Shown: one piece after another, positions 2,477 to 15,965 of the stretch | Layout of the letters: the number at the start of each line of letters is the position of its first letter | How positions within the stretch are numbered: position 1 is the first letter of the stretch | Sequence record: SRR2962707_2492 | Reading direction: 5' to 3' (one strand) | Length of the DNA stretch: 41,608 bases | Translations under genes and position numbers: made by a program | Notes under the pieces: model-generated | What the model saw: the letters and a program-made list of their open reading frames with translations, nothing else | Databases searched by the model: none | What the model was told of the DNA's origin: nothing

Positions 2477-2610
2477 GTGTGCAGGGTTGCTCTGATGCGG
2501 TGGCCGGTGCGGCCTGGGTGCGCTGCCCCTGTTCGCCATAGGCGAACGCCCCCGAAATATTTCCGGACAGATGAAATCAGGGGGTCAGAGACGCACAAGG
2601 TCATCGTCGT

Positions 2611-3036
2611 TCAGTAGCCCGCCCAGCGAAACCGGCCGTCCTGGGCCAGCGGCGCCTCAGGGTTCCAGGCGATTTCCCAAATGTGCCCCTCGGGATCAGC
2701 GAAATATCCGATATGCCCACCCCAGAACACGTCATGCGCGGGTTTCAGGATCTCGGCCCCCGCCGCCGCTGCGCGGTCAAGCAGGGCCGGCACTTCTTCG
2801 CGGGTGCGCAGGTTGTGGCCGTAGGTCGCGGCCCCCGTGCCCAGCCGTTCGGGCGCAACACCCATGTCGCGCGCCAGATCCGCAAGCGGATAAAGCCCCA
2901 GCGCCTGACCGATCAGATCATAAACCACGATGCCCTCGGGCGCGCTGGCGCGCTGCCAGCCGAGCGCGTCGTAAAATGCCGCCTCGCGCGCGATATCGCG
3001 CACCCCAAGAGTTATCAGGCTGATACGTTGTTCCAT
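2611..3036 (-). CDS. VOC/glyoxalase family protein
   Basis: MEQRISLITLGVRD...FYDALGW and FWGGHIGYFADPEGHIWEIAWNP are typical VOC motifs. Confidence 0.93.
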   Translation of the reverse strand: MEQRISLITLGVRDIAREAAFYDALGWQRASAPEGIVVYDLIGQALGLYPLADLARDMGVAPERLGTGAATYGHNLRTREEVPALLDRAAAAGAEILKPAHDVFWGGHIGYFADPEGHIWEIAWNPEAPLAQDGRFRWAGY

Positions 3037-3097
3037 TTTTCGACGCTCCGCTAATGAATGATCGCGCACCGGTACCGACGCACGTATGCCCAAGCAT

Positions 3098-3841
3098 TCA
3101 GTTGCCAGACACCTCTGTCACAGCCTGTTCTATCATGCGCAGGCAGGCGGGGTCGGAAAACCGGTGATCGACCCCCTTGACCAAGGTCAGGCGCAGATTA
3201 TCCGACCCGATGTGGTCCAGCAGGCGCAGGGCGGTGTCGCGCGTCACTGCGGTATCTTCGGTCCCCTGCATCAACCGCACCGGAAACGGCATATCCAGCG
3301 GATCACGCAGGACCAGATGTTCGCGGCCATCTTCGATCAGCCTGCGCGTGATGACATAGGGATCGCCGTAATCCGACGGCAGCGAAACTGCGCCATCGCT
3401 TAGGATAGTGGCGCGCTGATCGGGGGTGAACCCGGCCCAAAACCCGTCTTCTGTAAAATCTGGCGCGGCAGCGATGCCGACAAAACCCACGACCCGCGTC
3501 AAGCGCCGCACCAGCAGGCAGCCGATCCAGCCGCCCATTGAAGAGCCGACCAGAATCAGTGGCCCCTGTGTCACCGCATCGATCACCGCCAGCGCGTCAT
3601 CGGCCCAGTCCCCGATACAGCCGTCCTCAAACACGCCGCCCGACCTGCCATGGCCGGAATAATCCAGCCGCAGAAAGGCGCGGCCCTGCTCTTTGGCCCA
3701 GGCTTCCAGGTGCACGGCTTTGGTGCCCTCCATGTCGGATTTGTAGCCCGACAGAAACACCACGCCAGGCCCCGCGCCGTGGGTCAGGGCATAGGCCAGC
3801 CGTCGGCCCTCAGCGCTAATCAGATATTCGATGTCAGCCAT
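3098..3841 (-). CDS. Alpha/beta hydrolase
   Basis: GSSMGG nucleophile elbow, DYSGHGRS, QGTEDTAV and DHRFS. RBS GAGG precedes MADIEYL. Confidence 0.92.
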   Translation of the reverse strand: MADIEYLISAEGRRLAYALTHGAGPGVVFLSGYKSDMEGTKAVHLEAWAKEQGRAFLRLDYSGHGRSGGVFEDGCIGDWADDALAVIDAVTQGPLILVGSSMGGWIGCLLVRRLTRVVGFVGIAAAPDFTEDGFWAGFTPDQRATILSDGAVSLPSDYGDPYVITRRLIEDGREHLVLRDPLDMPFPVRLMQGTEDTAVTRDTALRLLDHIGSDNLRLTLVKGVDHRFSDPACLRMIEQAVTEVSGN

Positions 3842-3904
3842 GGCACCTCTCTTTCGCGCGCAGCATGCCAATGTGCCGCCGCCATGACCAGTGCCAAGGG
3901 GGCA

Positions 3905-4124
3905 TTATGTCAGCCCGACCTCTTGCTCGGCCTCCTCAACCCCAAGGGCCAGCGGGACCGATCAGCAGCAGCCCGCCAGTCAGCGTATTGGCCAGCACCG
4001 CATAGGACAACCACGCGTCATCGGGCGCCTTATTGACAACGTAGACGCCGCGCCCGCTGTGCACCCCCTGATAGGCAATCATCAAAGCAAAGAGAATGAC
4101 GAGAGTAATTCAGACCCGTCCCAT
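3905..4124 (-). pseudogene. Possible disrupted small membrane protein
   Basis: ATG GGA CGG GTC TGA then ITLVILFALMIAYQG...AWLSYAVLANTLTGGLLLIGP. Removing one base in GGTCCCGCTG continues the frame as LALGVEEAEQEVGLT*. This needs one in-frame stop and one frameshift. Confidence 0.3.
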
Positions 4125-4232
4125 CAGGCCAATGCCTTTGCTTGACACGCCGACCCCGCTTTGCCACTTAGGGCACGCATCATAACCCGCAACCGGGCGT
4201 CCCGTAGGCGCCAAACCGACGAGGAGCCTCAG

Positions 4233-6188
4233 ATGGCCCAGATCTCCCTCACCTTTCCCGACGGCAATGCACGCGAATTCGACGTGGGCGTGACCCCTGC
4301 CGCCGTGGCCGAAAGTATTTCCAAATCATTGGGTAAAAAGGCCATCTCGGCCACTGTGAACGGCGCACACTGGGATTTGCAGTGGCCCATTAACGCCGAT
4401 TCCTCGATCGCGATCAACACTCTGACCGATGCCGCGCCCGCGCTGGAACTGATCCGCCACGATCTGGCCCATATCATGGCCCGCGCCGTGCAAGAACTGT
4501 GGCCCGACGTAAAGGTGACCATCGGCCCGGTGATCGAAAACGGTTGGTATTATGACTTTGATCGCGCCGAACCCTTCACCCCCGAGGACCTTGGCCAGAT
4601 CGAAAAGAAGATGCGTGATATCATCAACAAACGCGATCCCGTCCGCACCGAGGTCTGGGACCGCGATGTTGCGATCAAATACTACGAAGACCGGGGCGAG
4701 CCTTACAAGGTCGAACTGATCGACGCCATTCCGGGCGACGAACCCCTGCGCATGTACTGGCACGGCGACTGGCAGGATCTGTGCCGCGGTCCGCATCTGC
4801 AACACACCGGTCAGGTTCCGGGCGACAGCTTCAAACTTATGTCCGTGGCCGGTGCCTACTGGCGCGGCGATTCCAATCGCCAGATGCTTCAGCGGATCTA
4901 CGGCGTTGCCTTTCAGAACAAGGAAAACCTCAAGGCACACCTGCATATGCTGGAAGAGGCTGCCAAACGCGACCACCGCAAGCTGGGTCGCGAGATGGAC
5001 CTGTTCCATATGCAGGAAGAGGCCCCCGGCCAGATTTTTTGGCACCCCAACGGCTGGAAAATCTACACCAGCCTTCAGGACTACATGCGCCGCCAGCAGA
5101 CCCGCGATGGTTATGTCGAGGTGAACACACCGCAGGTGGTGAACCGCAAGCTGTGGGAAGCGTCGGGCCATTGGGAAAATTACCAGGAGCACATGTTCAT
5201 CGTCGAGGTTGACGAGGAACATGCCCGCGAAAAGACTGTCAATGCGCTCAAGCCAATGAACTGCCCCTGCCATGTGCAGATCTACAACCACGGCTTGAAA
5301 AGCTACCGTGACCTGCCGCTGCGGATGGCCGAATTCGGATCGTGCAACCGATACGAACCATCCGGCGCCCTGCACGGCATCATGCGGGTGCGCGGCTTTA
5401 CCCAGGACGATGCACATATTTTCTGCACCATGGATCAAGTCGAGGCGGAGTCGAAGAAATTCATCGACTTCCTTGCCGGAATCTATGGCGATCTTGGGTT
5501 TGTAAACTGGCGGGTCAAACTGTCCACTCGTCCGGAAAAACGGGTCGGTTCCGAGGAAAGCTGGGACCGCATGGAAGCGGCGTTGGGCAATGCCTGCCGC
5601 GCCGCCGGCCGCGAATTCGAGATCTTCGAAGGCGAAGGCGCGTTCTATGCGCCCAAGCTGGAATTCGTGCTGACCGACGCTATCGGCCGCGACTGGCAAT
5701 GCGGGACTCTGCAACTGGACCCCAACCTGCCAGAACGGCTGGATGCGAGTTACATAGGCGCGGATGGATCAAAGCACCGCCCAATCATGCTGCACCGCGC
5801 CGTGTTGGGATCGTTCGAACGCTTCATCGGTATCCTGATCGAAGAACATGCCGGCAGGCTGCCGTTCTGGCTTGCCCCGCGTCAGGTGGTCGTCGCCTCT
5901 ATCGTGTCGGACGCTGATGACTATGTGAACGAAGTCGTGGCCACCCTGCAAAAGGTCGGCGTGCGGGCCGAGGCGGACACGCGGAATGAAAAGATCAACT
6001 ACAAGGTGCGCGAACATTCGGTCGGCAAGGTCCCCGTGATTTTGGCGATCGGCGCACGCGAGGTTGAGGAACGCACCGTCACCCTGCGCCGTCTGGGGGA
6101 AAAGGCGACTTCCGTCGTCGGGCTGGATGACACCGTGGCAGCACTGGCGGCAGAAGCAACGCCGCCGGATCTGCGCACCGACGACTGA
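4233..6188 (+). CDS. thrS: Threonine--tRNA ligase
   Basis: TGS N-terminus, [42 protein letters not shown] and [20 protein letters not shown] before the ATG at 4233. Confidence 0.99.
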
Positions 6189-6520
6189 TGTCGACAGGCG
6201 TTTCTTGATCAACAAAAAAGCATTGTCCTGAGCTACACCCTTAGGGCAAGCACCTGCCCCTGTGGTGGCACCTACCCCGCCCCTTCGTGTCACTTCGTGG
6301 CATCCACACCATCCGTAACTCTGAGACAACCGCTGATCTCACTTCAGCGCGCCGCGCACATCACGCACAGGCGCTGCCAGGCGCGATTGTGTCCGGGCTC
6401 GTCCGATGCATGCACGAATTTCAAATTGCAAAACGGTCCCAACCCGCACCACCAAATGTTACAGACATCACGCAGCGCCGCGCGCATAGCCGCCATGCCG
6501 TGGGATCAAGGCGAAGTCCT

Positions 6521-6544
6521 GTAACATTCCAGCAAGGGAACCGT
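6521..6544 (+). promoter_or_regulatory. Candidate ECF (SigF/EcfF-type) promoter upstream of the bufferin cluster
   Basis: GTAACA-N14-CCGT resembles the GTAAC...CG(T/A) promoters of the SigF/EcfF group, which regulates DUF692 clusters in other alphaproteobacteria. It lies ~205 nt upstream of the precursor ATG. Confidence 0.4.
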
Positions 6545-6748
6545 TTCAAAAAGGCACGGCACCAGCTTTCAAAACCCTCATTTATCCAGGTAAACCATTC
6601 ACTTGCGTATCTTACCTGTCTCACGCACCATGACACCGCCGTGATGCACAGCCCTGTGAGTATCTTTAACGGGCATCAGAATGCACCCTAACCACATCGA
6701 CGGGCCAACACTCGGCGATAAAGGTCAACACTTAAGAGGGAAGTACAG

Positions 6749-7054
6749 ATGTCAAACACCATGAAGTCCGCAGCCATCATCGGGGCCATCGCGGCATCCT
6801 TTGCAACCTATAGCACCACCGCCAGCGCACAGGCGCAGGAAAAGTGCTTTGGCGTCTCTCTGGCCGGTGCAAACGACTGCGCCGCCGGCCCCGGTACCAC
6901 TTGCGCGGGCACATCCAAGGTCGACTATCAGGGCAACGCCTGGTCCCTGGTCGAAGGCGGGACCTGCGCAGAAATCGCACTGCCCGCCATGGCAGACGGA
7001 TCGGCGCGCATGGGTTCACTCGAAGCGCTGGACCGCGATTTGCCGATGACCTAA
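6749..7054 (+). CDS. bufA1: Bufferin-type RiPP precursor (DUF2282, BufA1 family)
   Basis: Sec signal peptide ending in ASA-Q, then [14 protein letters not shown]-x7-CAG...DYQGNAW...GTC with four conserved Cys. First gene before DUF692. Confidence 0.92.
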
Positions 7055-7066
7055 GCCCCGGACATC

Positions 7067-7091
7067 AGGGTGCGCAACGCTTGCGCACCCT
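7067..7091 (+). other. Stem-loop after the precursor gene
   Basis: AGGGTGCGCAA-cgc-TTGCGCACCCT, a perfect 11-bp stem with no U tract. Confidence 0.7.
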
Positions 7092-7147
7092 ACACCCACA
7101 CCCCTGATACGCAGTCACCGACACCGCCCAAAGCCAAGGGATACACC

Positions 7148-8002
7148 ATGTTCGACAATCCAAATCCCCTGCCCGCAGCCCCCGGCGTCGGTTACAAGGC
7201 ACAGCATTTCACCGCGATCATGACAGACCCGGATCCGGTTCAATGGCTCGAAATCCATGCCGAAAACTACATGGGCAACGGCGGTCGCCCGATTGCACAG
7301 CTCCGGCATCTGGCCGAACGCTTTCCAATCTCGGTCCACGGCGTCGGACTGTCTATCGGGGGCGAAGGGCCACTTGACTCCGACCATCTTGCCCGGCTGA
7401 AACACCTCTGCGATTGGCTCAATCCAGCGAGCTTTTCTGAACACCTGGCATGGTCGACCCACGACAGCCATTTTTACAATGACCTCCTGCCGCTGCCCTA
7501 TTCCGACGCCACCCTGTCGCACGTCTGCGATCATATCGACACGGTGCAAGAGGTTCTGGGCCGCCCCATGCTGCTGGAAAATCCGTCCAGCTACCTCGCC
7601 TTTGAAACCTCGACCATGACGGAAACCGACTTTCTGCACGCCGTCACCCGGCGCACCGGTTGCGGCATGTTGCTGGATGTGAACAACGTCTTTGTGTCCG
7701 CCACCAACCTTGGCTATGCGCCGCGCGCCTATATCGATGCCTATCCGCTGGACGCAGTGGGCGAGATCCACCTTGGCGGCCATGACGAAGATCACGATGA
7801 TCATGGCGCGCCCCTGCTGATCGACAGCCACGGACGCGAAGTTGTCGACCCGGTCTGGGACTTGCTGGATTACACGCTTGCCCGGTCTGGCCCGCGCCCG
7901 ACCCTGGTGGAATGGGACACCGATGTGCCCGACTGGCCGGTTCTCGCGGCCGAGACGCGCCGCGCCGACATGGCCCTGTCCCGCCTTGGCGTGACCGCAT
8001 GA
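7148..8002 (+). CDS. bufB: Multinuclear non-heme iron oxidase (DUF692/MNIO), bufferin maturase
   Basis: WLEIHAENYM, HGVGLSIG, SEHLAW, LENPSSY, LLDVNNVFVS, EIHLGGH, IDSH and EWD, the DUF692 iron-ligand motifs. Confidence 0.95.
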   Translation: MFDNPNPLPAAPGVGYKAQHFTAIMTDPDPVQWLEIHAENYMGNGGRPIAQLRHLAERFPISVHGVGLSIGGEGPLDSDHLARLKHLCDWLNPASFSEHLAWSTHDSHFYNDLLPLPYSDATLSHVCDHIDTVQEVLGRPMLLENPSSYLAFETSTMTETDFLHAVTRRTGCGMLLDVNNVFVSATNLGYAPRAYIDAYPLDAVGEIHLGGHDEDHDDHGAPLLIDSHGREVVDPVWDLLDYTLARSGPRPTLVEWDTDVPDWPVLAAETRRADMALSRLGVTA

Positions 8003-8736
8003 CCCATCAGACCGCCTTTCACGCCGCCCTTCTGGATGCCGCCGCCCCCATTCCTGCCGGGCTGACCGATGGTATGGGCCGACCCGCAGGGCAGCGCTAT
8101 GCCGTTTATCGCAACAACGTCGCCGTATCGCTGCGCGACGCGTTGGAAACCGGATTTCCGGCCATCGCCAAACTGATCGGGACCGAAAATTTCCACGCCG
8201 TCGCGGGGATGTACCTGCGAAGCGCGCCGCCCGACACGCCGATCATGCAGCAGTATGGCGCTGGCTTCGCCGAGTTTCTGGAAACCCTCGCGCCGTTGGC
8301 CCATCTTTCCTATCTGGCCGATGTGGCCCGGATCGATCACAGGATGCGCCAATCCTATCACGCCGCCGATTCCACCCCCGCCGATGCCGGTCTTTTCCAG
8401 ACCCTGCCCGAAGACAAACTGATGTCCGCGCGCCTGTCCCTTGCGCCCTCTGTCCGGTTGCTACGATCTGCTTTTCCCGCCTTTGACGTCTGGGCCTTCA
8501 CCCTGCGCCCCGGCGCGCCAAAGCCCCGTCCACTGGCCCAGGACACTCTGATCCTGCGCGACGGATTCGATCCAGAACCGCACCTGCTCGGCCCCGGTGC
8601 CCATGACTTTGTACAGGCCATCGGCGCGGGCCAGCCACTGGGCGCCGCAATACAGGCGGCGGGCGACGTTTTCGATCTTGGCGCGATCCTGAACCTGCTG
8701 TTGTCCAACCACGCCATCACAGAGATCCATATTTGA
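7999..8736 (+). CDS. bufC: DUF2063 partner protein (RRE-like) of the MNIO
   Basis: RYAVYRNNV...L...FP...LIG.ENF, YG.GFAEFL and YLADVARID. ATGA overlap with the bufB stop. Confidence 0.9.
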   Translation: MTHQTAFHAALLDAAAPIPAGLTDGMGRPAGQRYAVYRNNVAVSLRDALETGFPAIAKLIGTENFHAVAGMYLRSAPPDTPIMQQYGAGFAEFLETLAPLAHLSYLADVARIDHRMRQSYHAADSTPADAGLFQTLPEDKLMSARLSLAPSVRLLRSAFPAFDVWAFTLRPGAPKPRPLAQDTLILRDGFDPEPHLLGPGAHDFVQAIGAGQPLGAAIQAAGDVFDLGAILNLLLSNHAITEIHI

Positions 8737-8749
8737 AAGGCACAATGCC

Positions 8750-9322
8750 ATGGACCGCCTCATAACGCTTCACACTGACCTGTCGGACAGTATCGAACGC
8801 CATTTTTCCGCGCTGATCCCGCTGATCGCCCGTCTGGTCTTTGCCGCGACGCTGCTGGGCTATTTCTGGTCCTCGGCCCTTACCAAACTGGGCGATGGGG
8901 TTATGGGGGTGCTACAGCCCTCGGCTGGCGCCTATGCCCAGATATTCCCCCGCGCGCTAGAAGCGGTGGGGTATGATGCCTCGCAGCTCGGCCTGTTTCA
9001 CTGGGCCGTTGTGACTTTGGGCATGTGGGCGGAATTCATCCTGCCGCTGCTGATTGTGGTCGGCCTGTTCACCCGTCTGGCAAGCCTTGGCATGATCGGC
9101 TTTATCGTTGTGCAAAGCCTGACCGACCTATACGCCCACGGCGCCATCGCGCATGAGGGAACACTTGGCGCGTGGTTTGACAGGGCACCCGACAGCCTGA
9201 TCCTGGATCAACGCACCTTCTGGATATTCGTGTTGCTGGTGCTCGTTATCCGGGGGGCCGGTGCGCTGTCGCTCGACCGCCTCCTGTCGCGTCAAATCCT
9301 GGGCCACAGGCACCCCGCCTGA
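8750..9322 (+). CDS. bufD: DoxX family membrane protein
   Basis: RLVFAATLLGYFWSSALTK, AEFILPLLIVVGLFTRLA and GAGALSLD. Fourth gene of the cluster. Confidence 0.9.
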   Translation: MDRLITLHTDLSDSIERHFSALIPLIARLVFAATLLGYFWSSALTKLGDGVMGVLQPSAGAYAQIFPRALEAVGYDASQLGLFHWAVVTLGMWAEFILPLLIVVGLFTRLASLGMIGFIVVQSLTDLYAHGAIAHEGTLGAWFDRAPDSLILDQRTFWIFVLLVLVIRGAGALSLDRLLSRQILGHRHPA

Positions 9323-9353
9323 CCGCGACGGATCGGGGCGGCCAGACCGGTCG

Positions 9354-9722
9354 TCAGAAATGCGCTTTCGGCTCATCCGGTTTTCCGGCGGCTAGCGCCA
9401 GAAAACCGCCCAACCCGGCAAAGGCAATCGGGAACATCGTGAAAACGTTGAACCCGAATGCCCCGTACATCCCAGCCGCCGACAGCAGCAGCAACACACC
9501 GCCCCACAGGGCGCGCGACATCGCCATGGCCCCACCCGCAATCGCCAGCATCGGCGACAGGATCGACACTATACGCACGAAATCCGGGTTGTCGAACATG
9601 CCGAAAGTCGCCTCGACCTCGGCAAAGTTGCGGGCCAGTTCGGTATAGCCGAACCCGACAAACCCCACGATCATCCCGATCACCCCGGCGATGATGCCCA
9701 AAGTCAGTGCAGCGCTGCGCAT
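9354..9722 (-). CDS. Hypothetical membrane protein (about 4 TM segments)
   Basis: MRSAALTLGIIAGVIGMIVG followed by Gly-rich hydrophobic helices. Starts immediately after the stop of the ArsC-family gene. Confidence 0.8.
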   Translation of the reverse strand: MRSAALTLGIIAGVIGMIVGFVGFGYTELARNFAEVEATFGMFDNPDFVRIVSILSPMLAIAGGAMAMSRALWGGVLLLLSAAGMYGAFGFNVFTMFPIAFAGLGGFLALAAGKPDEPKAHF

Positions 9723-9723
9723 C

Positions 9724-10044
9724 TCAGACCCCGCCCTGCAGGGCGATCTGCACAGCCTTGGACCAGCCCAGCCACATCTCGTCACCCTCTGTGATCAACG
9801 GGCGCTTCATCAGGGTGGGATGGTCCTGCAACAGCTCCAGTGGCGGGCGCGCGCGCTCTTGCGCATCCAGCCCGCGCCATGTGGTCGACCGCGTGTTGAC
9901 CACACCGTCGCCAAACACTGTCAGGGCACGTTCCAGCACCGCCAGCGGCACGCCATCTGTGCGCACATCCACAAAAGTGGCCCCATCCAGCGCTTTCTGC
10001 GCTTTGCGACAAGTGTCACATGTTTTCAGTCCGTAAAGGATCAT
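9724..10044 (-). CDS. ArsC/Spx/YffB family protein
   Basis: MILYGLKTCDTCRKA (CxxC), VNTRSTTWRGL and HPTLMKRPLI. RBS AGGAG. Confidence 0.93.
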   Translation of the reverse strand: MILYGLKTCDTCRKAQKALDGATFVDVRTDGVPLAVLERALTVFGDGVVNTRSTTWRGLDAQERARPPLELLQDHPTLMKRPLITEGDEMWLGWSKAVQIALQGGV

Positions 10045-10273
10045 GCCCGCTCCTGTATCATCTTGTTCAAATAATCGTACCCTGCCCGCTTTGCGACCCT
10101 GTTTTGCTTGCTTTTTACATATCCCGTGCAATCCTTTTCCCCACGTGGCCCCCAAGGGTCAACTCCGCAGCGGGTTCCGGCGTCCCTCGCCTGCCGCCCG
10201 GACAGCCCCGAAAGGGCCGCGCCGAACCCCTGACATTTTCAGGGACAAGCAAGACGAGAAGGAGACACGGGAC

Positions 10274-10480
10274 ATGCCGACGGGCACCGTGAAATGGTTC
10301 AACACCACCAAAGGATACGGGTTCATTGCACCCGATGATGGCGGCCAGGATGTGTTTGTGCATATCTCTGCCGTGGAACGCTCAGGCCTTACCGGGCTGG
10401 CCGACGATCAGAAAGTCGGCTTTGAAATGCGCGAAGGCCGTGACGGACGACAGATGGCCTCTGATCTGAAACTTATCTGA
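10274..10480 (+). CDS. cspA: Cold-shock protein (CspA family)
   Basis: GTVKWFNTTKGYGFI (RNP1) and DVFVHISA (RNP2). AAGGAG RBS. Confidence 0.97.
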   Translation: MPTGTVKWFNTTKGYGFIAPDDGGQDVFVHISAVERSGLTGLADDQKVGFEMREGRDGRQMASDLKLI

Positions 10481-10501
10481 ACGCGCGATACCTGAACTAG
10501 A

Positions 10502-10529
10502 TGGCCGGACCTGTCCCGGGACCGGCCAG
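10502..10529. terminator. Hairpin between the convergent csp and metR genes
   Basis: TGGCCGG...CCGGCCA inverted repeat with a weak tail. Confidence 0.4.
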
Positions 10530-10553
10530 TTACCCCCCTGCACGCCCCAGCAC

Positions 10554-11459
10554 CTAAACCGCCTGAAGCTTGACCGCTTCGGTGCGGGCAAATGTGATCA
10601 GGTCGCGCACAAATGGCTTGTCCACATCCGTGCTGCGCGTCGCCGCATAGAGCCGCCGGGTGATGCCCGTCTGCGTCAGTGGGCGGGTTACGTAATCCGA
10701 ATTATACTTGACCTCGCGCACCACCCAATCTGGCAGCACGGCCACACCGCGATTGCTCGCCACCAGCAGCAGGATGACCGCCGTCAGTTCCACCTGCCGG
10801 ATGCTGGCCGGTTCGACCTTGGCCGGGGTCAGCAGCTGGCTGAACACATCCAGCCGCGAACGATCCACCGGATAGGTGATCAGCGTCTGACCACGGAAAT
10901 CCTGCGCCTCGACAAAGGTTTTCTGCGCCAATGGATGGGTTGAGGCGGCAACAAAGACCGCCTTGTAATCAAAAAGCTCGGTAAAGGTGATGCCGGGAAT
11001 GTCCTCGGGGTCCGAGGATACCACCAGATCCACCTCTTCCTTGAGCAGCGCCGGCAGCGCATCAAAGGCAAGCCCCGGCCGGATGTCCACGTCGACATCA
11101 GGCCAGCCCTTGCGAAACGTCTCAAGCACCGGAAAAAGCCATTCAAAACAGGCGTGGCATTCGATCGCGATGTGCATCCGCCCCGTCGACCCGGCCCGCA
11201 AGCCGCTGAATTCCTCTTGCAAGGCCTCAACCTGGGGCAGGACCTGTTCGGCCAGCCGCAGCAGGCGCATGCCGGCGGGCGACAGCTTCATCGGTTTTGA
11301 TCGGCGCACAAACAGCTCGACCCCTGCCTGATCCTCAAGCCCCTTGATCTGATGACTAAGCGCGGATTGCGTTATGTTCAACTGATCCGCCGCCTTCGCC
11401 ACGCCCCCCGCCTCATAGATCGCCTTGATCGTGCGAAGATGCCTGAATTCGATATGCAT
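10554..11459 (-). CDS. metR: LysR-family regulator MetR
   Basis: MHIEFRHLRT...TQSALSHQIKGLE HTH and the MetR-specific IECHACFEWL. Divergent from metF. Confidence 0.93.
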   Translation of the reverse strand: MHIEFRHLRTIKAIYEAGGVAKAADQLNITQSALSHQIKGLEDQAGVELFVRRSKPMKLSPAGMRLLRLAEQVLPQVEALQEEFSGLRAGSTGRMHIAIECHACFEWLFPVLETFRKGWPDVDVDIRPGLAFDALPALLKEEVDLVVSSDPEDIPGITFTELFDYKAVFVAASTHPLAQKTFVEAQDFRGQTLITYPVDRSRLDVFSQLLTPAKVEPASIRQVELTAVILLLVASNRGVAVLPDWVVREVKYNSDYVTRPLTQTGITRRLYAATRSTDVDKPFVRDLITFARTEAVKLQAV

Positions 11460-11472
11460 TTTAGGTATCGGC

Positions 11473-11508
11473 CTCATGTTGTTGATGAGTATTATGAGTT
11501 TGTCTCAC
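11473..11508. promoter_or_regulatory. Candidate MetR binding sites
   Basis: CTCAT-N7-ATGAG (11473-11489) and ATGAG-N5-CTCAC (11494-11508) dyads in the metR-metF divergent spacer. Confidence 0.55.
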
Positions 11509-11554
11509 ACTGGGGGATATGCAACAAGTCGGGAAACGCACAAGGACGCCTGCC

Positions 11555-12421
11555 ATGACCCGCCCCGAGATTTCATTTGAGTTCTTCCCGCCCAAGAACA
11601 TCGAAGCCACCTTTCGCCTCTGGGACACTGTTCAGGTATTGGCCCCGCTGGCGCCACGGTTCGTGTCGGTCACCTATGGCGCGGGCGGCACCACGCGCGA
11701 TCTGACCCGGGATGTGGTGTCGACCTTGCAGAAAAATTCCGGCCTGCGCACCGCAGCGCATCTGACCTGCGTCGATGCAACTCGCGATGAAACACTGCAA
11801 ATCGCCCGCGATTTCGCCGCCGCCGGCGTGACCGACATCGTCGCCCTGCGCGGCGACCCGCCCAAGGGCGCAAACGGCTTTGTGCCCCACCCCGATGGCT
11901 TCAAAAGCTCTGTCGAACTGATCGAGGCACTGAAAGACGCCGGTGATTTTACCATTCGCGTCGGCGCCTACCCCGACAAACACCCCGAGGCACCCAGCGC
12001 CACGGCGGATGTCGAATATCTCAAACGCAAACTCGACGCTGGCGCTGACGAGGCGCTGACCCAGTTTTTCTTTGAGGCTGACACCTTCTTTCGGTTCCGC
12101 GATGCCTGCGCCAAGGCTGGGATCGACAAACCCATCGTGCCGGGCATCTTTCCGATCGAAAACTGGAAAGGCGCGCGTCGCTTTGCCGATTCCTGCGGCA
12201 CGCATATCCCCGAATGGGTCATCGACGCATTCGAAACCGCCACCCGGGACGGACGGCAGGATCTGCTGGCCACTGCGATGTGCACCGAACTCTGCTCGAA
12301 TCTGATCGACGGTGGGGTGGATAAGCTGCACTTTTACACGCTCAACCGCCCCGAACTAACGCGCGATGTCTGCTTTGCACTGGGCGTGACGCCCGACGTA
12401 ACCCTTGAAGACGTCGCCTGA
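11555..12421 (+). CDS. metF: 5,10-methylenetetrahydrofolate reductase
   Basis: ISFEFFPPK, FVSVTYGAGG, AHLTC, ALRGDPP, TQFFF and HFYTLN. Confidence 0.98.
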   Translation: MTRPEISFEFFPPKNIEATFRLWDTVQVLAPLAPRFVSVTYGAGGTTRDLTRDVVSTLQKNSGLRTAAHLTCVDATRDETLQIARDFAAAGVTDIVALRGDPPKGANGFVPHPDGFKSSVELIEALKDAGDFTIRVGAYPDKHPEAPSATADVEYLKRKLDAGADEALTQFFFEADTFFRFRDACAKAGIDKPIVPGIFPIENWKGARRFADSCGTHIPEWVIDAFETATRDGRQDLLATAMCTELCSNLIDGGVDKLHFYTLNRPELTRDVCFALGVTPDVTLEDVA

Positions 12422-12505
12422 CCGGGCCACCGGGGCTATGAATATTGTCCCGACCTATCCGCCTGCCCCTTGCCACTGTCGCGCGGCCACGGCACGTTCA
12501 GTTGT

Positions 12506-12967
12506 ATGATACGCCCTGCCCGCCCCGATGATCTGAACACCATTCGCGCCATCGCGGTCGCGGCTTATGCGCCCTATATTCCACTGATCGGTCGCAAACC
12601 CGCCCCGATGGAAGCGGACTTTGCCGCCCAGATCGCCGCTCACACCCTCTATGTCGCAGACCCGGACGACACCGCGCCGCTTGGCTTTGTGGTTTTCTAT
12701 CCGGCGGGGGATTCGATGTTTCTGGAAAATATCGCCGTTGACCGGGCCGTCGGCGGTCAGGGCATCGGCAGGGCGCTGATGACCTATTGCGAAACGCAGG
12801 CGCGCACGGCCGGGATGGTGGCGGTCACGCTTTATACCAACGCCCTGATGGCCGACAATCTGCGCATCTATCCGCATCTTGGCTATGTCCAGACCGACCG
12901 TCGGCACGAAGACGGCTTTGACCGGGTCTATTTCCGCAAGGACCTGCACCAAAGCGTCTCAGACTGA
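12506..12967 (+). CDS. GNAT family N-acetyltransferase
   Basis: MIRPARPDDL, LENIAV...GGQGIGRALM (acetyl-CoA motif A) and NLRIYPHLGY. Confidence 0.9.
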   Translation: MIRPARPDDLNTIRAIAVAAYAPYIPLIGRKPAPMEADFAAQIAAHTLYVADPDDTAPLGFVVFYPAGDSMFLENIAVDRAVGGQGIGRALMTYCETQARTAGMVAVTLYTNALMADNLRIYPHLGYVQTDRRHEDGFDRVYFRKDLHQSVSD

Positions 12968-13042
12968 ACCCGAAGCGGATGTGCGCTGTCCTTCCCTTTG
13001 GTCGAACGCAAACTCCGATGCTCTTTGTCCCAGTTTGAATCC

Positions 13043-13284
13043 GAAACGCCGAACACCGCCGCCCGCCTGGTCCCTGTAAAACCGGTGCGCCGCCGCGATG
13101 ACCTGCGCGCCCAGCGCGGGGATCGCCTTGGGGCAAATCTAGTTTGAAGCGCCCGAAGAAAGTGCTCGGCGCGTCCTGCGCCCTGCCGCGGGCCACCATT
13201 CTGAAAAACCCCGTGGTATTCTGCGGCAGGTGTGCCAGTGTTATGCTGAACATCAGCAATGTCGGTCCCGACAGCCTGCCTTGG
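13043..13284 (+). pseudogene. bhcB: Eroded 3' remnant of beta-hydroxyaspartate dehydratase
   Basis: 13144-13284 reads LKRPKKVLGASCALPRATILKNPVVFCGRCASVMLNISNVGPDSLPW. This parallels the BhcB/serine-dehydratase C-terminus (W.RMK.V.EPS.AVPLA.ILKN..VF.GKRVGVI.TGGNVDLD.LPW). A weaker match ETPNTAARLVPVK lies upstream in another frame. The position is the expected one, directly before bhcC. Confidence 0.75.
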
Positions 13285-13339
13285 TCAAGTGTCATCGCCG
13301 GGGTCGCCCCATCCGTTTTCTCAACGCGAGAAGAGAACT

Positions 13340-14503
13340 ATGAAAGACCACACAGATTTCACCGACTTAGAGGTTGGTTATGACATTCCCGCCCTGCCAG
13401 GCATGGATGAAGCCGACATTCAGACGCCCTGCCTGATCCTTGATCTTGATGCGCTGGAACGCAACATCACCAAGATGGGCGATTTCGCCAAATCCCACGG
13501 CATGCGCCACCGGGTCCATGGCAAGATGCACAAATCCGTCGATGTCGCCCTGCTTCAGGAACGTCTTGGCGGGTCCTGTGGCGTCTGCTGTCAAAAGGTG
13601 TCCGAGGCCGAAGTGTTCGCCCGTGGCGGCATCACGGATGTGCTGGTGACCAATCAGGTCACCCAACCGGCCAAGATCGACCGCCTTGCCCGCCTGCCAT
13701 TGCTTGGCGCGCGCACCATCTGCTGTGTCGATGACATGGATAACATCCCGAACCTGTCCGCCGCCGCGCAAAAACACGGCACCCAGATCGAATGTCTGGT
13801 GGAAATCGATTGCGGTGACGGGCGCTGCGGCGTGACAACCACGCCCCAGGTCGTGGAACTCGCCCGGGCCATCGACGCCGCCAAGGGTCTGAAATTCGCG
13901 GGCCTTCAGGCCTATCAGGGCGCGATGCAACACCTCGACAGCTATGAGGACCGCAAAGCCAAGGCCGATATCGCCGTTGCCATAGTCACCCACGCCATTG
14001 CCGCACTCAAGGCCGAAGGGATCGATTGCGACACCGTCAGTGGCGGCGGCACCGGCTCCTACTACTTCGAATCCGCCTCCGGGGTGTTCAACGAACTCCA
14101 GTGCGGCTCTTACGCCTTTATGGACGCCGACTATGGCCGCATTCATGGCAAGGACGGCAACCGCATCGATCAGGGCGAATGGGAAAACGCGCTCTTCGTC
14201 CTCACCAGTGTTATGAGCCACGCCAAAGCCGACAAGGCCATCGTCGATGCCGGGCTCAAGACCCATTCGGTCGATTCCGGCCTGCCGGTGATCTTTGGCC
14301 GCACGGATGTGAGTTACGTCAAATGCTCGGACGAACACGGCGTCGTGTCCGACCCTAATGGCGTGCTCCAGGTCAACGATACCCTCCGCCTCGTCCCGGG
14401 CCACTGCGACCCCACCTGCAATATCCACGACTGGTATGTCGGCGTGCGCGGCGGCAAGGTCGAAACCCTCTGGCCCATCTCGGCCCGCGGCAAGGCGTAC
14501 TGA
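13340..14503 (+). CDS. bhcC: Beta-hydroxyaspartate aldolase-like PLP enzyme (DSD1/D-threonine aldolase family)
   Basis: EVGYDIPALPGMDE, HGKMHKS (PLP Lys), CCQKVSEAE, ELQCGSYAFMDADY, SDEHG, PGHCDPTCN and ARGKAY. 387 aa, colinear with Paracoccus BhcC as recalled. Confidence 0.93.
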   Translation: MKDHTDFTDLEVGYDIPALPGMDEADIQTPCLILDLDALERNITKMGDFAKSHGMRHRVHGKMHKSVDVALLQERLGGSCGVCCQKVSEAEVFARGGITDVLVTNQVTQPAKIDRLARLPLLGARTICCVDDMDNIPNLSAAAQKHGTQIECLVEIDCGDGRCGVTTTPQVVELARAIDAAKGLKFAGLQAYQGAMQHLDSYEDRKAKADIAVAIVTHAIAALKAEGIDCDTVSGGGTGSYYFESASGVFNELQCGSYAFMDADYGRIHGKDGNRIDQGEWENALFVLTSVMSHAKADKAIVDAGLKTHSVDSGLPVIFGRTDVSYVKCSDEHGVVSDPNGVLQVNDTLRLVPGHCDPTCNIHDWYVGVRGGKVETLWPISARGKAY

Positions 14504-14544
14504 TACAGGTCTGCCCGCCCATCAGCCTGGGCCGAGCCAGAAAA

Positions 14545-14599
14545 CCATATACCAGCCATACGGCAACCATACGGTTTCCATACGCTTTCCACATGCCCC
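14545..14599. repeat. Degenerate 11-bp tandem repeat, 5 units
   Basis: CCATATACCAG CCATACGGCAA CCATACGGTTT CCATACGCTTT CCACATGCCCC. Units start at 14545, 14556, 14567, 14578 and 14589. Confidence 0.8.
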
Positions 14600-14822
14600 T
14601 TTCGACCCCTCAAAGACCGCAGAAAGACCCAAATACGCCGGTGATGCGGTCCGGGTGACAATTGGCAGACCACCCTGCGCACCGCTGCCTTTGCCGTATC
14701 CATTCAAACATCTTGCACGCAGAGTCCCAATGACTCGGCATAATCCGTGCCGTGCATTTATCCATTTGTGAACATCTGAATCACCTCTGGCTTCGTCTTT
14801 AGCCTGCCAAAGGCACGTCCTA

Positions 14823-14957
14823 CACTAGGGACGCAGCAGCACCGGAAAAATCATCCCGCTCGACGGCACCAAATTTGGTCTACTAGACCTTGCAGTCGCC
14901 GCCAAAGTGGTGGAGCTTGCACAGCAGAACGACATCGCTCTCGACGTCGATTTCTGA
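14823..14957 (+). pseudogene. bhcD: Eroded 3' remnant of iminosuccinate reductase (ornithine cyclodeaminase family)
   Basis: Reads H*GRSSTGKIIPLDGTKFGLLDLAVAAKVVELAQQNDIALDVDF*. This parallels the BhcD C-terminus HPGR.S...ITLFDGTGVGLQDLAVA...V.LA...G.A.EVDF. It has an in-frame TAG at 14826 and no start. The position is the expected one, after bhcC. Confidence 0.8.
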
Positions 14958-14972
14958 TGTAGAGGCAATGAC

Positions 14973-15965
14973 ATGCGCGTGGCTCTGAACGGTTTCGGCA
15001 GGATCGGACGCACAATCCTGCGCCAGCTTCTGGCATCCCACACTGATATCGAAATCGCCCTGATCAACGATATCGCCCCGCTGGACACCTGTGCCTACCT
15101 GTTTCGCTATGACTCGGTCTTCGGACCCTTTCCCGGAACGGTGCGCGCGGATACCGGGACGCTCGCGGTTGACGAACGGCTAATCCCGTTCAGCCACAAA
15201 AAAGATCTCGCCGAACTGGATCTTTCAGGCATCGATATCCTGATGGATTGCACCGGCATCATCCACACCCGCGCCCATGCTGCACGCGGGCTGACTGCGG
15301 GGGCGAAAAATGTCCTGATTTCCGGCCCCTGCGATGAGGCCGAAAAAACCATCGTCCTTGGCGCAAACGAGGGTCAGCTTGGCGATGCCCGCATCGTGTC
15401 CAACGCGTCCTGCACAACCAATGCGCTCGCGCCCCTGCTGCGCGTGCTACAGGACACCTGGGGTATCGCGCAGGGCCATATGACCACGATCCACTGCTAC
15501 ACTGGCAGTCAGCCCATGGTCGACGCGCCGCGCGGCGACCTTGCCCGCAGCCGTGCCGGGGCCGTGTCCATGGTGCCCACCACCACCAGCGCCACGCGCC
15601 TGATCGACCAGGTCCTGCCCGACATCGCGGGCCGCGTCACCGGCGCCGCCGTCCGCGTCCCGGTCATCAGCGTCTCTGCCATTGATCTGGTCGTGACGCT
15701 AAAAACCATTCCTGATCAATCTCTTGACATCCATCTGGAACAGATCTCACAGGCATCAAAGGTGCTGGGCATCACCCGGGATGCCACAGTCTCGACGGAC
15801 CTGCGTGCCCGGCCAGAATCCCTTGTCATTGCGCTACCGGAAACCATCCAGACCGGCAATCAGGTGCGGATCTTTGGCTGGTACGACAACGAATGGGGCT
15901 TTTCCGCGCGAATGATTGACATGGCACGCCTGATGGCGGCCCGACCGCCACGCCGGTCATCCTGA
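14973..15965 (+). CDS. gap: Type I glyceraldehyde-3-phosphate dehydrogenase family protein (divergent paralog)
   Basis: NGFGRIGR, YDSVFG, SNASCTTN (catalytic Cys), AVRVP and WYDNEWGFS. Confidence 0.9.
   Translation: MRVALNGFGRIGRTILRQLLASHTDIEIALINDIAPLDTCAYLFRYDSVFGPFPGTVRADTGTLAVDERLIPFSHKKDLAELDLSGIDILMDCTGIIHTRAHAARGLTAGAKNVLISGPCDEAEKTIVLGANEGQLGDARIVSNASCTTNALAPLLRVLQDTWGIAQGHMTTIHCYTGSQPMVDAPRGDLARSRAGAVSMVPTTTSATRLIDQVLPDIAGRVTGAAVRVPVISVSAIDLVVTLKTIPDQSLDIHLEQISQASKVLGITRDATVSTDLRARPESLVIALPETIQTGNQVRIFGWYDNEWGFSARMIDMARLMAARPPRRSS

Follow-up and report, generated by a model that had tools for sequence, protein, structure and literature searches.

The beta-hydroxyaspartate cycle is regarded as a unit of four genes that assimilates glycolate-derived glyoxylate in the sea, and its founding paper reportedly appeared in Nature in 2019. 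In a preprint (bioRxiv 10.1101/2022.08.08.503134), BhcC is described as reversibly joining glyoxylate and glycine to beta-hydroxyaspartate; there, conversion of two glyoxylate to oxaloacetate needs BhcA, BhcB, BhcC and BhcD, and a three-enzyme shunt needs BhcC, BhcB and BhcD, BhcC plus BhcB alone giving no rescue of E. coli test strains. According to a second report (PMC11323563), activation of the promoter upstream of bhcA/bhcABCD in response to glyoxylate depends on BhcR. Here, a bhc locus was analyzed in a 41,608-nucleotide (nt) stretch of sequence record SRR2962707_2492 (referred to as the window), a contig from an assembly that mixes several organisms; the host is a marine roseobacter-type bacterium. 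The window shares with the bhcR-bhcABCD cluster of Paracoccus denitrificans the order and strand of bhcB, bhcC and bhcD and the divergent bhcR. Unlike that cluster it has no bhcA, and about 45 nt of bhcR, 48 codons of bhcB and about a third of bhcD, in pieces, are left around a full-length bhcC. Because bhcA is gone and bhcB and bhcD are broken, the locus can run neither the cycle nor the shunt. The locus is a wrecked beta-hydroxyaspartate-cycle operon in which bhcC was kept by selection; its product likely works as a stand-alone aldolase, probably expressed by read-through.

Loci for comparison were taken from the best 80 of at least 596 confirmed genome relatives and the best 80 of at least 589 metagenome relatives of BhcC. 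Profiles were built from flanking open reading frames (ORFs) extracted from the 80 genome loci (74 of 77 kept for BhcB, 53 of 61 for BhcD), and protein profiles were run on the complete set of 1440 six-frame pieces of the window. NCBIfam cut-offs were 650 for BhcA (NF045640), 550 for BhcB (NF045641), 690 for BhcC (NF045642) and 500 for BhcD (NF045643); NF045644 was the BhcR model. A region of G094, the closest genome found, served as reference for lost sequence (L172).

The sequence-only reading of this DNA had claimed that both flanks of bhcC translate into C-termini, BhcB-like upstream and BhcD-like downstream, in the canonical bhcB-C-D order and on one strand. This was borne out in each respect. 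The BhcB profile matched 13144-13287 (+) with positions 276-323 of 325 (expectation value E 7.8e-9; next best piece E 2.4), and the DNA-level bhcB profile aligned ungapped to 13141-13288 (E 4.2e-19). NF045641 was the sole NCBIfam family matched by the upstream peptide (267-312 of 312, E 1.5e-6; 27.6 bits against a cut-off of 550). The BhcB of L081, the best metagenome relative among the loci listed, gave 47.8% identity over 46 amino acids (aa) in tblastn (E 1.1e-6). On the other side, the BhcD profile matched 14829-14954 (+) with positions 289-330 of 330 (E 3e-8). The downstream peptide had NF045643 as its sole family match (280-321 of 321, E 2.2e-7; 30.5 bits, cut-off 500), and tblastn with a single BhcD protein reached E 5.2e-8. 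The two vestige ORFs matched no Pfam family. Both vestiges lie on the + strand and are syntenic with G094, and the downstream reading 'H*GRSS' proved exact, its stop being a TAG at 14826-14828.

The bhcD remnant had been seen in part. Its C-terminal piece is real (DNA-level profile match at 14821-14965, E 9.4e-16), but a second, frameshifted fragment, collinear with it, had been overlooked. In nhmmer this internal fragment matched profile positions 350-458 at E 1.2e-8, with gaps of 3, 1 and 2 nt; the BhcD protein profile reached it at 14645-14740 (+) with positions 111-130 (E 0.56 window-wide, independent E-value 0.043 within the flank). Identity to G094 was 72.8% for the internal fragment and 79.6% (nt, ungapped) and 71% (aa) for the 3' vestige. 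The bhcB vestige is 70.7% (nt) and 54% (aa) identical to G094, compared with 86% (nt) for bhcC, and has lost its stop codon through a 1-nt deletion.

That bhcR and bhcA are missing, as had also been stated, applies to bhcA and to a full BhcR: tblastn gave nothing better than E 0.13 in the 41.6-kb window, and neither a class-V aminotransferase nor an IclR protein was found in a Pfam scan of the 38 other window ORFs. It does not apply to the very 3' end of bhcR, a vestige of which was located by blastn (Table 1). This piece is 88.6% identical over 35 nt to the relatives L047 and L108 (E 2.5e-6) and 79.5% identical over 44 nt to G094 positions 6490-6533, inside bhcR. A tblastn match with residues 258-283 of the BhcR of L003 was weak (E 0.58), and the bhcR remnant is the weakest of the vestiges.

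Table 1. Features of the bhcC locus and its neighbours in the window (deletions relative to G094).
Feature	Position	Strand	Basis or remark
metR	10554-11477	divergent from metF	neighbour upstream of bhcC
metF	11519-12421	+	same-strand upstream neighbour of bhcC
GNAT acetyltransferase gene, intact	12470-12967	+	Pfam Acetyltransf_1
bhcR 3'-end vestige, ~45 nt, left edge of ~2.9-kb deletion	13089-13132	-	blastn
Deletion 1 junction, 13 nt replacing 2923 nt of G094	13133-13145	.	blastn blocks of L172, segment alignments
bhcB 3' vestige, last 48 codons (codons at 13144-13287)	13144-13290	+	protein, DNA and NCBIfam profiles, tblastn
bhcB-bhcC spacer, purine-rich stretch before bhcC ATG	13291-13339	+	83.3% identity to G094 over 42 aligned columns
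bhcC, intact, 387 aa, 3-hydroxy-D-aspartate aldolase	13340-14503	+	NF045642, 6qkb
Ancestral bhcC-bhcD spacer and first bases of bhcD	14504-14633	+	78% identity to G094 10832-10966; CCATACG repeats
Deletion 2 junction, ~320 nt of G094 bhcD (L172 10967-11286) reduced to 35 nt	14634-14668	.	blastn blocks
Internal bhcD fragment, 105 nt, frameshifted, with GG-x-L-T-x-L-RTAA stretch	14653-14757	+	nhmmer, protein profile
Deletion 3 junction, ~464 nt of G094 bhcD (L172 11341-11804) reduced to 107 nt, ending in in-frame TAG	14721-14827	.	
bhcD 3' vestige, last 42 codons and original TGA stop	14829-14957	+	profiles, NCBIfam, tblastn
GAPDH-like gene (gap), intact	14973-15965	+	TIGR01534 329.6 bits, under 367.2 cut-off (type I GAPDH)
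rlmL-like gene			downstream neighbour of bhcC

The ancestral arrangement was recovered from relatives. G094 carries a complete metR-metF-GNAT-bhcR-bhcA-bhcB-bhcC-bhcD-gap locus, and its DNA (L172) is 82-83% identical to window positions 6628-12950 and 14828-15943. The proposed synteny check on the order GNAT-bhc-gap was thus answered by an intact cluster in the same slot. L003, with metR-metF-bhcR-bhcA-bhcB-bhcC-bhcD-gap, aligns with the window on either side of the missing genes, and this order without GNAT was found in L003, L011, L012, L038 and L047. Among the best 80 genome loci, metR-metF lies upstream in 5, gap downstream in 11 and GNAT in none. In L081, whose BhcC is 87% identical (aa) to that of the window, bhcA, bhcB, bhcC and bhcD are intact, with BhcA, BhcB and BhcD over the NCBIfam cut-offs. 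The gap gene is found 3' of bhcD in L081 and G094 as well (window versus G094, 88% aa identity). As a recurrent neighbour of bhcD that survived the decay intact, it may have a functional link with the cluster or with bhcC.

The best database homologue of the window GNAT is 80% identical and labelled Puniceibacterium sediminis. A search for orthologues in 401 family genomes gave one close match, in G094 (78-79% aa identity), on the contig with the complete bhc cluster. GNAT is ancestral in this lineage, because the G094 orthologue directly precedes an intact bhcR-A-B-C-D. An insertion of GNAT that replaced bhcRAB, considered on account of its absence from the 80 loci and from five syntenic genomes, was ruled out by the same arrangement.

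On the upstream side, the G094 stretch that is gone from the window (L172 6534-9456) comprises the whole of bhcA, the greater part of bhcR and about 85% of bhcB; its ends fall within the 3' end of bhcR and near codon 265 of bhcB, with bhcA in between. With 13 window nt standing in for 2923 nt of G094, a single deletion of about 2.9 kb accounts for essentially all of the upstream loss. Heavy erosion, as the sequence-only reading had put it, therefore fits bhcD but not the upstream side, where decay was not gradual. Piecemeal erosion is confined to bhcD, with two deletions, small indels and one stop. Between the GNAT stop and the bhcR vestige, 121 nt (12968-13088) replace about 42 nt in G094; neither these nor 63 nt at 14758-14820 had a match in 173 loci or in the rest of the window. 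Together with syntenic homology, three deletions, indels, a lost stop, a gained stop and a raised nonsynonymous rate were found. Judged by its sequence, the locus is a decayed bhc operon that still occupies its ancestral slot.

In the ancestral bhcC-bhcD spacer, the motif CCATACG is repeated head to tail at 11-nt spacing (window 14543-14600; L172 10870-10930). The window has three exact copies as well as degenerate ones, and G094 has five exact copies. Of 152 other loci, 151 lacked the motif in the 200 nt that follow bhcC (background 0.004 per 200 nt). RNA of this spacer folds somewhat better than shuffled sequences (z -2.58). The array may be a lineage-specific binding-site array or a product of slippage.

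bhcC itself was found as intact as had been claimed. Its product matched NF045642 over positions 1-387 of 387 with 738.8 bits, above the curated equivalog cut-off of 690, has the Pfam domains Ala_racemase_N and D-ser_dehydrat, and aligned ungapped to residues 3-387 of 387 of the D-3-hydroxyaspartate aldolase of PDB entry 6qkb (674.9 bits). Nonsynonymous (dN) and synonymous (dS) substitutions per site and their ratio (omega) were estimated pairwise by the Nei-Gojobori method and for branches by a distance-based three-taxon method. Between window and G094, bhcC showed dN 0.077, dS 0.536 and omega 0.14, within the range of its neighbours (metF 0.067, metR 0.056, gap 0.105, GNAT 0.18). Branch omega was 0.12 for the window and 0.18 for G094, and omega against 155 relatives had a median of 0.11 (0.05-0.14 in a sample of 25). 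The check on dN/dS proposed earlier thus gave a value of about 0.12 on the window branch, not near 1. In the first bhcC tree the window paired with L081 (support 0.913) on the longer branch (0.128 versus 0.067), and the three-taxon estimate with L081 gave dN 0.061 for the window versus 0.038, at omega 0.12 versus 0.11. The faster protein evolution that this suggested was gone against the closer G094, with branch dN 0.040 (window) versus 0.037 (G094). Judging from these rates, bhcC is maintained by purifying selection.

The adjoining vestiges evolved differently. Their 90 codons (bhcB and bhcD C-termini) share a median aa identity of 48% with 127 relatives, versus 67-77% among the intact relatives themselves. 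Against G094 their omega was 0.42, with branch dN of about 0.25 on the window side versus about 0 on that of G094. From this asymmetry the decay is old, in agreement with the earlier claim that the pathway was lost at this locus long ago. If change was neutral after inactivation, omega was near 0.2 before it and the branch spans about 0.3 synonymous substitutions per site, we infer that the vestiges have been adrift for about 0.2-0.3 substitutions per site, which would cover the greater part of the interval since divergence from G094. The locus represents a dated natural experiment, in which neutral vestiges adjoin a constrained gene. When bhcC was simulated under neutrality (20,000 trials, indels uncounted), an open frame persisted in 0.5% of trials at 0.2 and in 0.1% at 0.29 substitutions per site.

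These data show the following history. An ancestor with the order metR-metF-GNAT-bhcR-bhcA-bhcB-bhcC-bhcD-gap lost the BhcR gene, the BhcR-dependent promoter region upstream of bhcA, bhcA and most of bhcB in a single deletion of about 2.9 kb. Two deletions, small indels and a gained stop broke up bhcD, and bhcC stayed full length under the same purifying selection that acts on it where relatives have kept the operon. BhcC would then most likely act as a stand-alone pyridoxal 5'-phosphate (PLP) aldolase. Alone, it could cleave 3-hydroxyaspartate to glycine and an aldehyde, perhaps with other D-beta-hydroxy amino acids as further substrates, or it could buffer glyoxylate. A role outside the cycle would be the likeliest reason for the retention of bhcC, and the lone bhcC genes of L144 and G037, described below, lend it indirect support.

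Transcription of bhcC would probably occur by read-through from metF-GNAT on the same strand, because the promoter and activator of bhcC and the convergent bhcR were deleted and no terminator-like site is left before bhcC. With BhcR lost, bhcC would therefore no longer respond to glyoxylate via BhcR. If this is true, the deletion moved bhcC out of glyoxylate-inducible control by BhcR and into co-transcription with metF-GNAT. Between GNAT and bhcC no terminator-like site was found; the sole one in 12300-15100 lies inside GNAT (shuffle expectation 2.3), and the GNAT-bhcC spacer folds no more strongly than shuffled sequences (z 0.11). Rfam searches of 12300-15100 gave two matches far under the gathering scores (E 0.29 and 0.47). 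The purine-rich stretch ahead of the bhcC ATG is a putative ribosome-binding site. A promoter of bhcC's own, if present, would fall in 12968-13088 or in the bhcB vestige.

Several points weigh against this interpretation. Promoter-like sites in 12300-15100 numbered 0, with 1.0 expected, and the route of transcription is a guess. Intact bhcA, bhcB and bhcD may lie outside the 41.6-kb contig of this mixed assembly, which would leave bhcC serving the cycle. The decay dating is rough, coming from 90 codons and a partly saturated dS. Activity of BhcC on D-beta-hydroxy amino acids beyond 3-hydroxyaspartate is reported from older enzymology and found no confirmation in the literature searched. The NF045642 score of window BhcC is low within the over-cut-off genome matches listed (about 695-783). 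At 4 of 170 columns invariant in the family (155 aligned relatives) its residue is altered (T104, D160, G270, H309), the other 166 being kept, and in a leave-one-out count of departures from unanimous columns it ranks second-highest of 156. The four altered columns may reflect some loss of constraint, mild relaxation, tuned specificity or nothing; T104 is also present in 6qkb.

Lone bhcC genes were searched for in other loci. Where enough flanking sequence was available, a near-full bhcB was present in 135 of 137 related loci (upstream) and a near-full bhcD in 127 of 129 (downstream). The exceptions in these flanks were L048, where bhcB occupies two frames, L154, where bhcD lies about 700 nt out of place, and L144. 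In 301 sampled family genomes, BhcC was over the cut-off in 138 and BhcD in 141, and a comparison of the lists by eye showed a BhcD match for 137 of the 138 BhcC-positive genomes, the exception being G037. L144, a metagenome contig, encodes a BhcC of 738.7 bits with a 32-residue C-terminal vestige of BhcB and no bhcD. G037, a genome of 4.6 Mb, has a BhcC of 707.1 bits and no BhcA (best 274), BhcB (best 228) or BhcD (best 133) over the cut-off; no vestiges of bhc genes were found around its bhcC. Both resemble the window in having BhcC over the cut-off without bhcB or bhcD alongside, and their contexts differ from that of the window. Lone bhcC is rare and has arisen at least three times independently (window, L144, G037), not through one deletion.

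In the L144 region (2594-5762), the expected place of bhcD holds an ISKra4-family transposase fragment. Upstream in the same contig lie a BhcA-like aminotransferase on the other strand (452.6 bits, cut-off 650), a GntR regulator and an amidase. The neighbours of the G037 gene (L165, G037:C5 5453-12391) encode a bicupin, TauE, a xanthine/uracil permease and a fusion of OHCU decarboxylase and polysaccharide deacetylase; by gene content this context looks like purine or ureide breakdown, a source of glyoxylate. Possible early damage was noticed in otherwise complete clusters, with bhcD in two frames in G205:C82:6750-7665 and bhcB in two frames in L048 4900-5982. Stops inside bhcD and bhcA were flagged in G285:C1:3040838-3045189 (L173); tblastn showed none in BhcA 1-388 or BhcD 38-304. 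The possible lesions in G285, G205 and L048 could be real pseudogenes or assembly errors.

An unlikely alternative is that the cycle is dispersed, with bhcA, bhcB and bhcD (and bhcR) elsewhere in the genome, for example after duplication and complementary losses, and with bhcC still in its service. Duplications do happen, since BhcC and BhcD are each present twice in G116 and in G238, and in G250 bhcC and bhcD are on separate contigs; strong purifying selection on bhcC is exactly what such dispersal predicts. It would, however, require a duplication plus three complementary losses. No BhcA-, BhcB- or BhcD-like sequence was found elsewhere in the 41.6-kb window, and G037 demonstrates that a genome can keep BhcC without the other three enzymes over their cut-offs.

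It is improbable that bhcC was neofunctionalised after the breakup of the operon and encodes, in practice, no 3-hydroxyaspartate aldolase. The replacements A160D, D270G and A308T/Q309H post-date the split from G094. Columns 160, 270 and 309 are unanimous in the 155 aligned relatives, and A308 is nearly so. The corresponding residues differ between the solved D-threonine aldolases 7dib, 4v15 and 7yqa, as expected of specificity positions. Yet the branch dN of bhcC is not raised against G094, the protein is still over the BhcC equivalog cut-off, and the BhcCs of L144 and G037 are without these replacements; no substitutions common to the three lone BhcCs were found. That bhcC is functionless, open by chance and merely undecayed so far, for which the four changes at columns unanimous in the other 155 relatives and the long branch in the first tree could be cited, is scarcely credible, because neutral drift predicts a dN of about 0.2 rather than 0.04 and an open frame in 0.1-0.5% even before indels, of which the 105-nt bhcD fragment alone has three, and because the excess on the bhcC branch was gone against G094 and the vestiges beside it gained a dN of about 0.25 over the same time.

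A decayed operon with a retained, selected bhcC has consequences beyond this contig. The gene family, the bhc operon and operon decay as a process are already known. No report of a decayed bhc cluster or of a lone bhcC was found in the literature searched, which excluded the founding paper and the older enzymology. A four-gene unit has fallen apart here and its aldolase has stayed under selection, which points to a second, undescribed use of BhcC. More tentatively, and with some doubt, BhcC may have a cycle-independent role strong enough to preserve the gene repeatedly upon loss of the cycle (window, L144, G037). If so, BhcC would be a candidate for salvaging glycine and glyoxylate, with 3-hydroxyaspartate or other D-beta-hydroxy amino acids as the source, or for handling glyoxylate from other routes, such as purine breakdown (as in the G037 neighbourhood).

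KEGG entry K18425 is presumably the aldolase. If it is, the organism studied here and others of its kind would score as positive for the cycle even though this locus cannot run it, and surveys that use the aldolase only would overcount the cycle if the lone bhcC is what it appears to be. At least one study, a preprint (bioRxiv 10.1101/2025.09.29.679071), scores the cycle by this single entry. Here the overcount would be small: 1 of 138 BhcC-positive roseobacter-family genomes was without BhcD, and 1 of 137 flanked loci had a mere bhcB vestige.

The other genes of the window are an ordinary chromosomal set, e.g. thrS, psd, pssA and transporters. At 6749-8733, genes for a small DUF2282 membrane protein, an MbnB/TglH/ChrH-family protein (352 bits) and a DUF2063 protein were noticed; this trio looks like peptide-modification clusters.

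Characterized proteins allow the window enzyme to be placed. At the positions where window BhcC has D160, G270, T308 and H309, the aldolase 6qkb has A, D, A and Q, and the activity of the window enzyme is a prediction. The D-threonine aldolases 7dib, 4v15 and 7yqa belong to the same fold family (Ala_racemase_N and D-ser_dehydrat; 308-333 bits). They are far more distant from window BhcC than 6qkb is, and NCBIfam places the window protein with BhcC, not with the D-threonine aldolases. They are nevertheless stand-alone enzymes, which is the mode of action that a lone BhcC would need.

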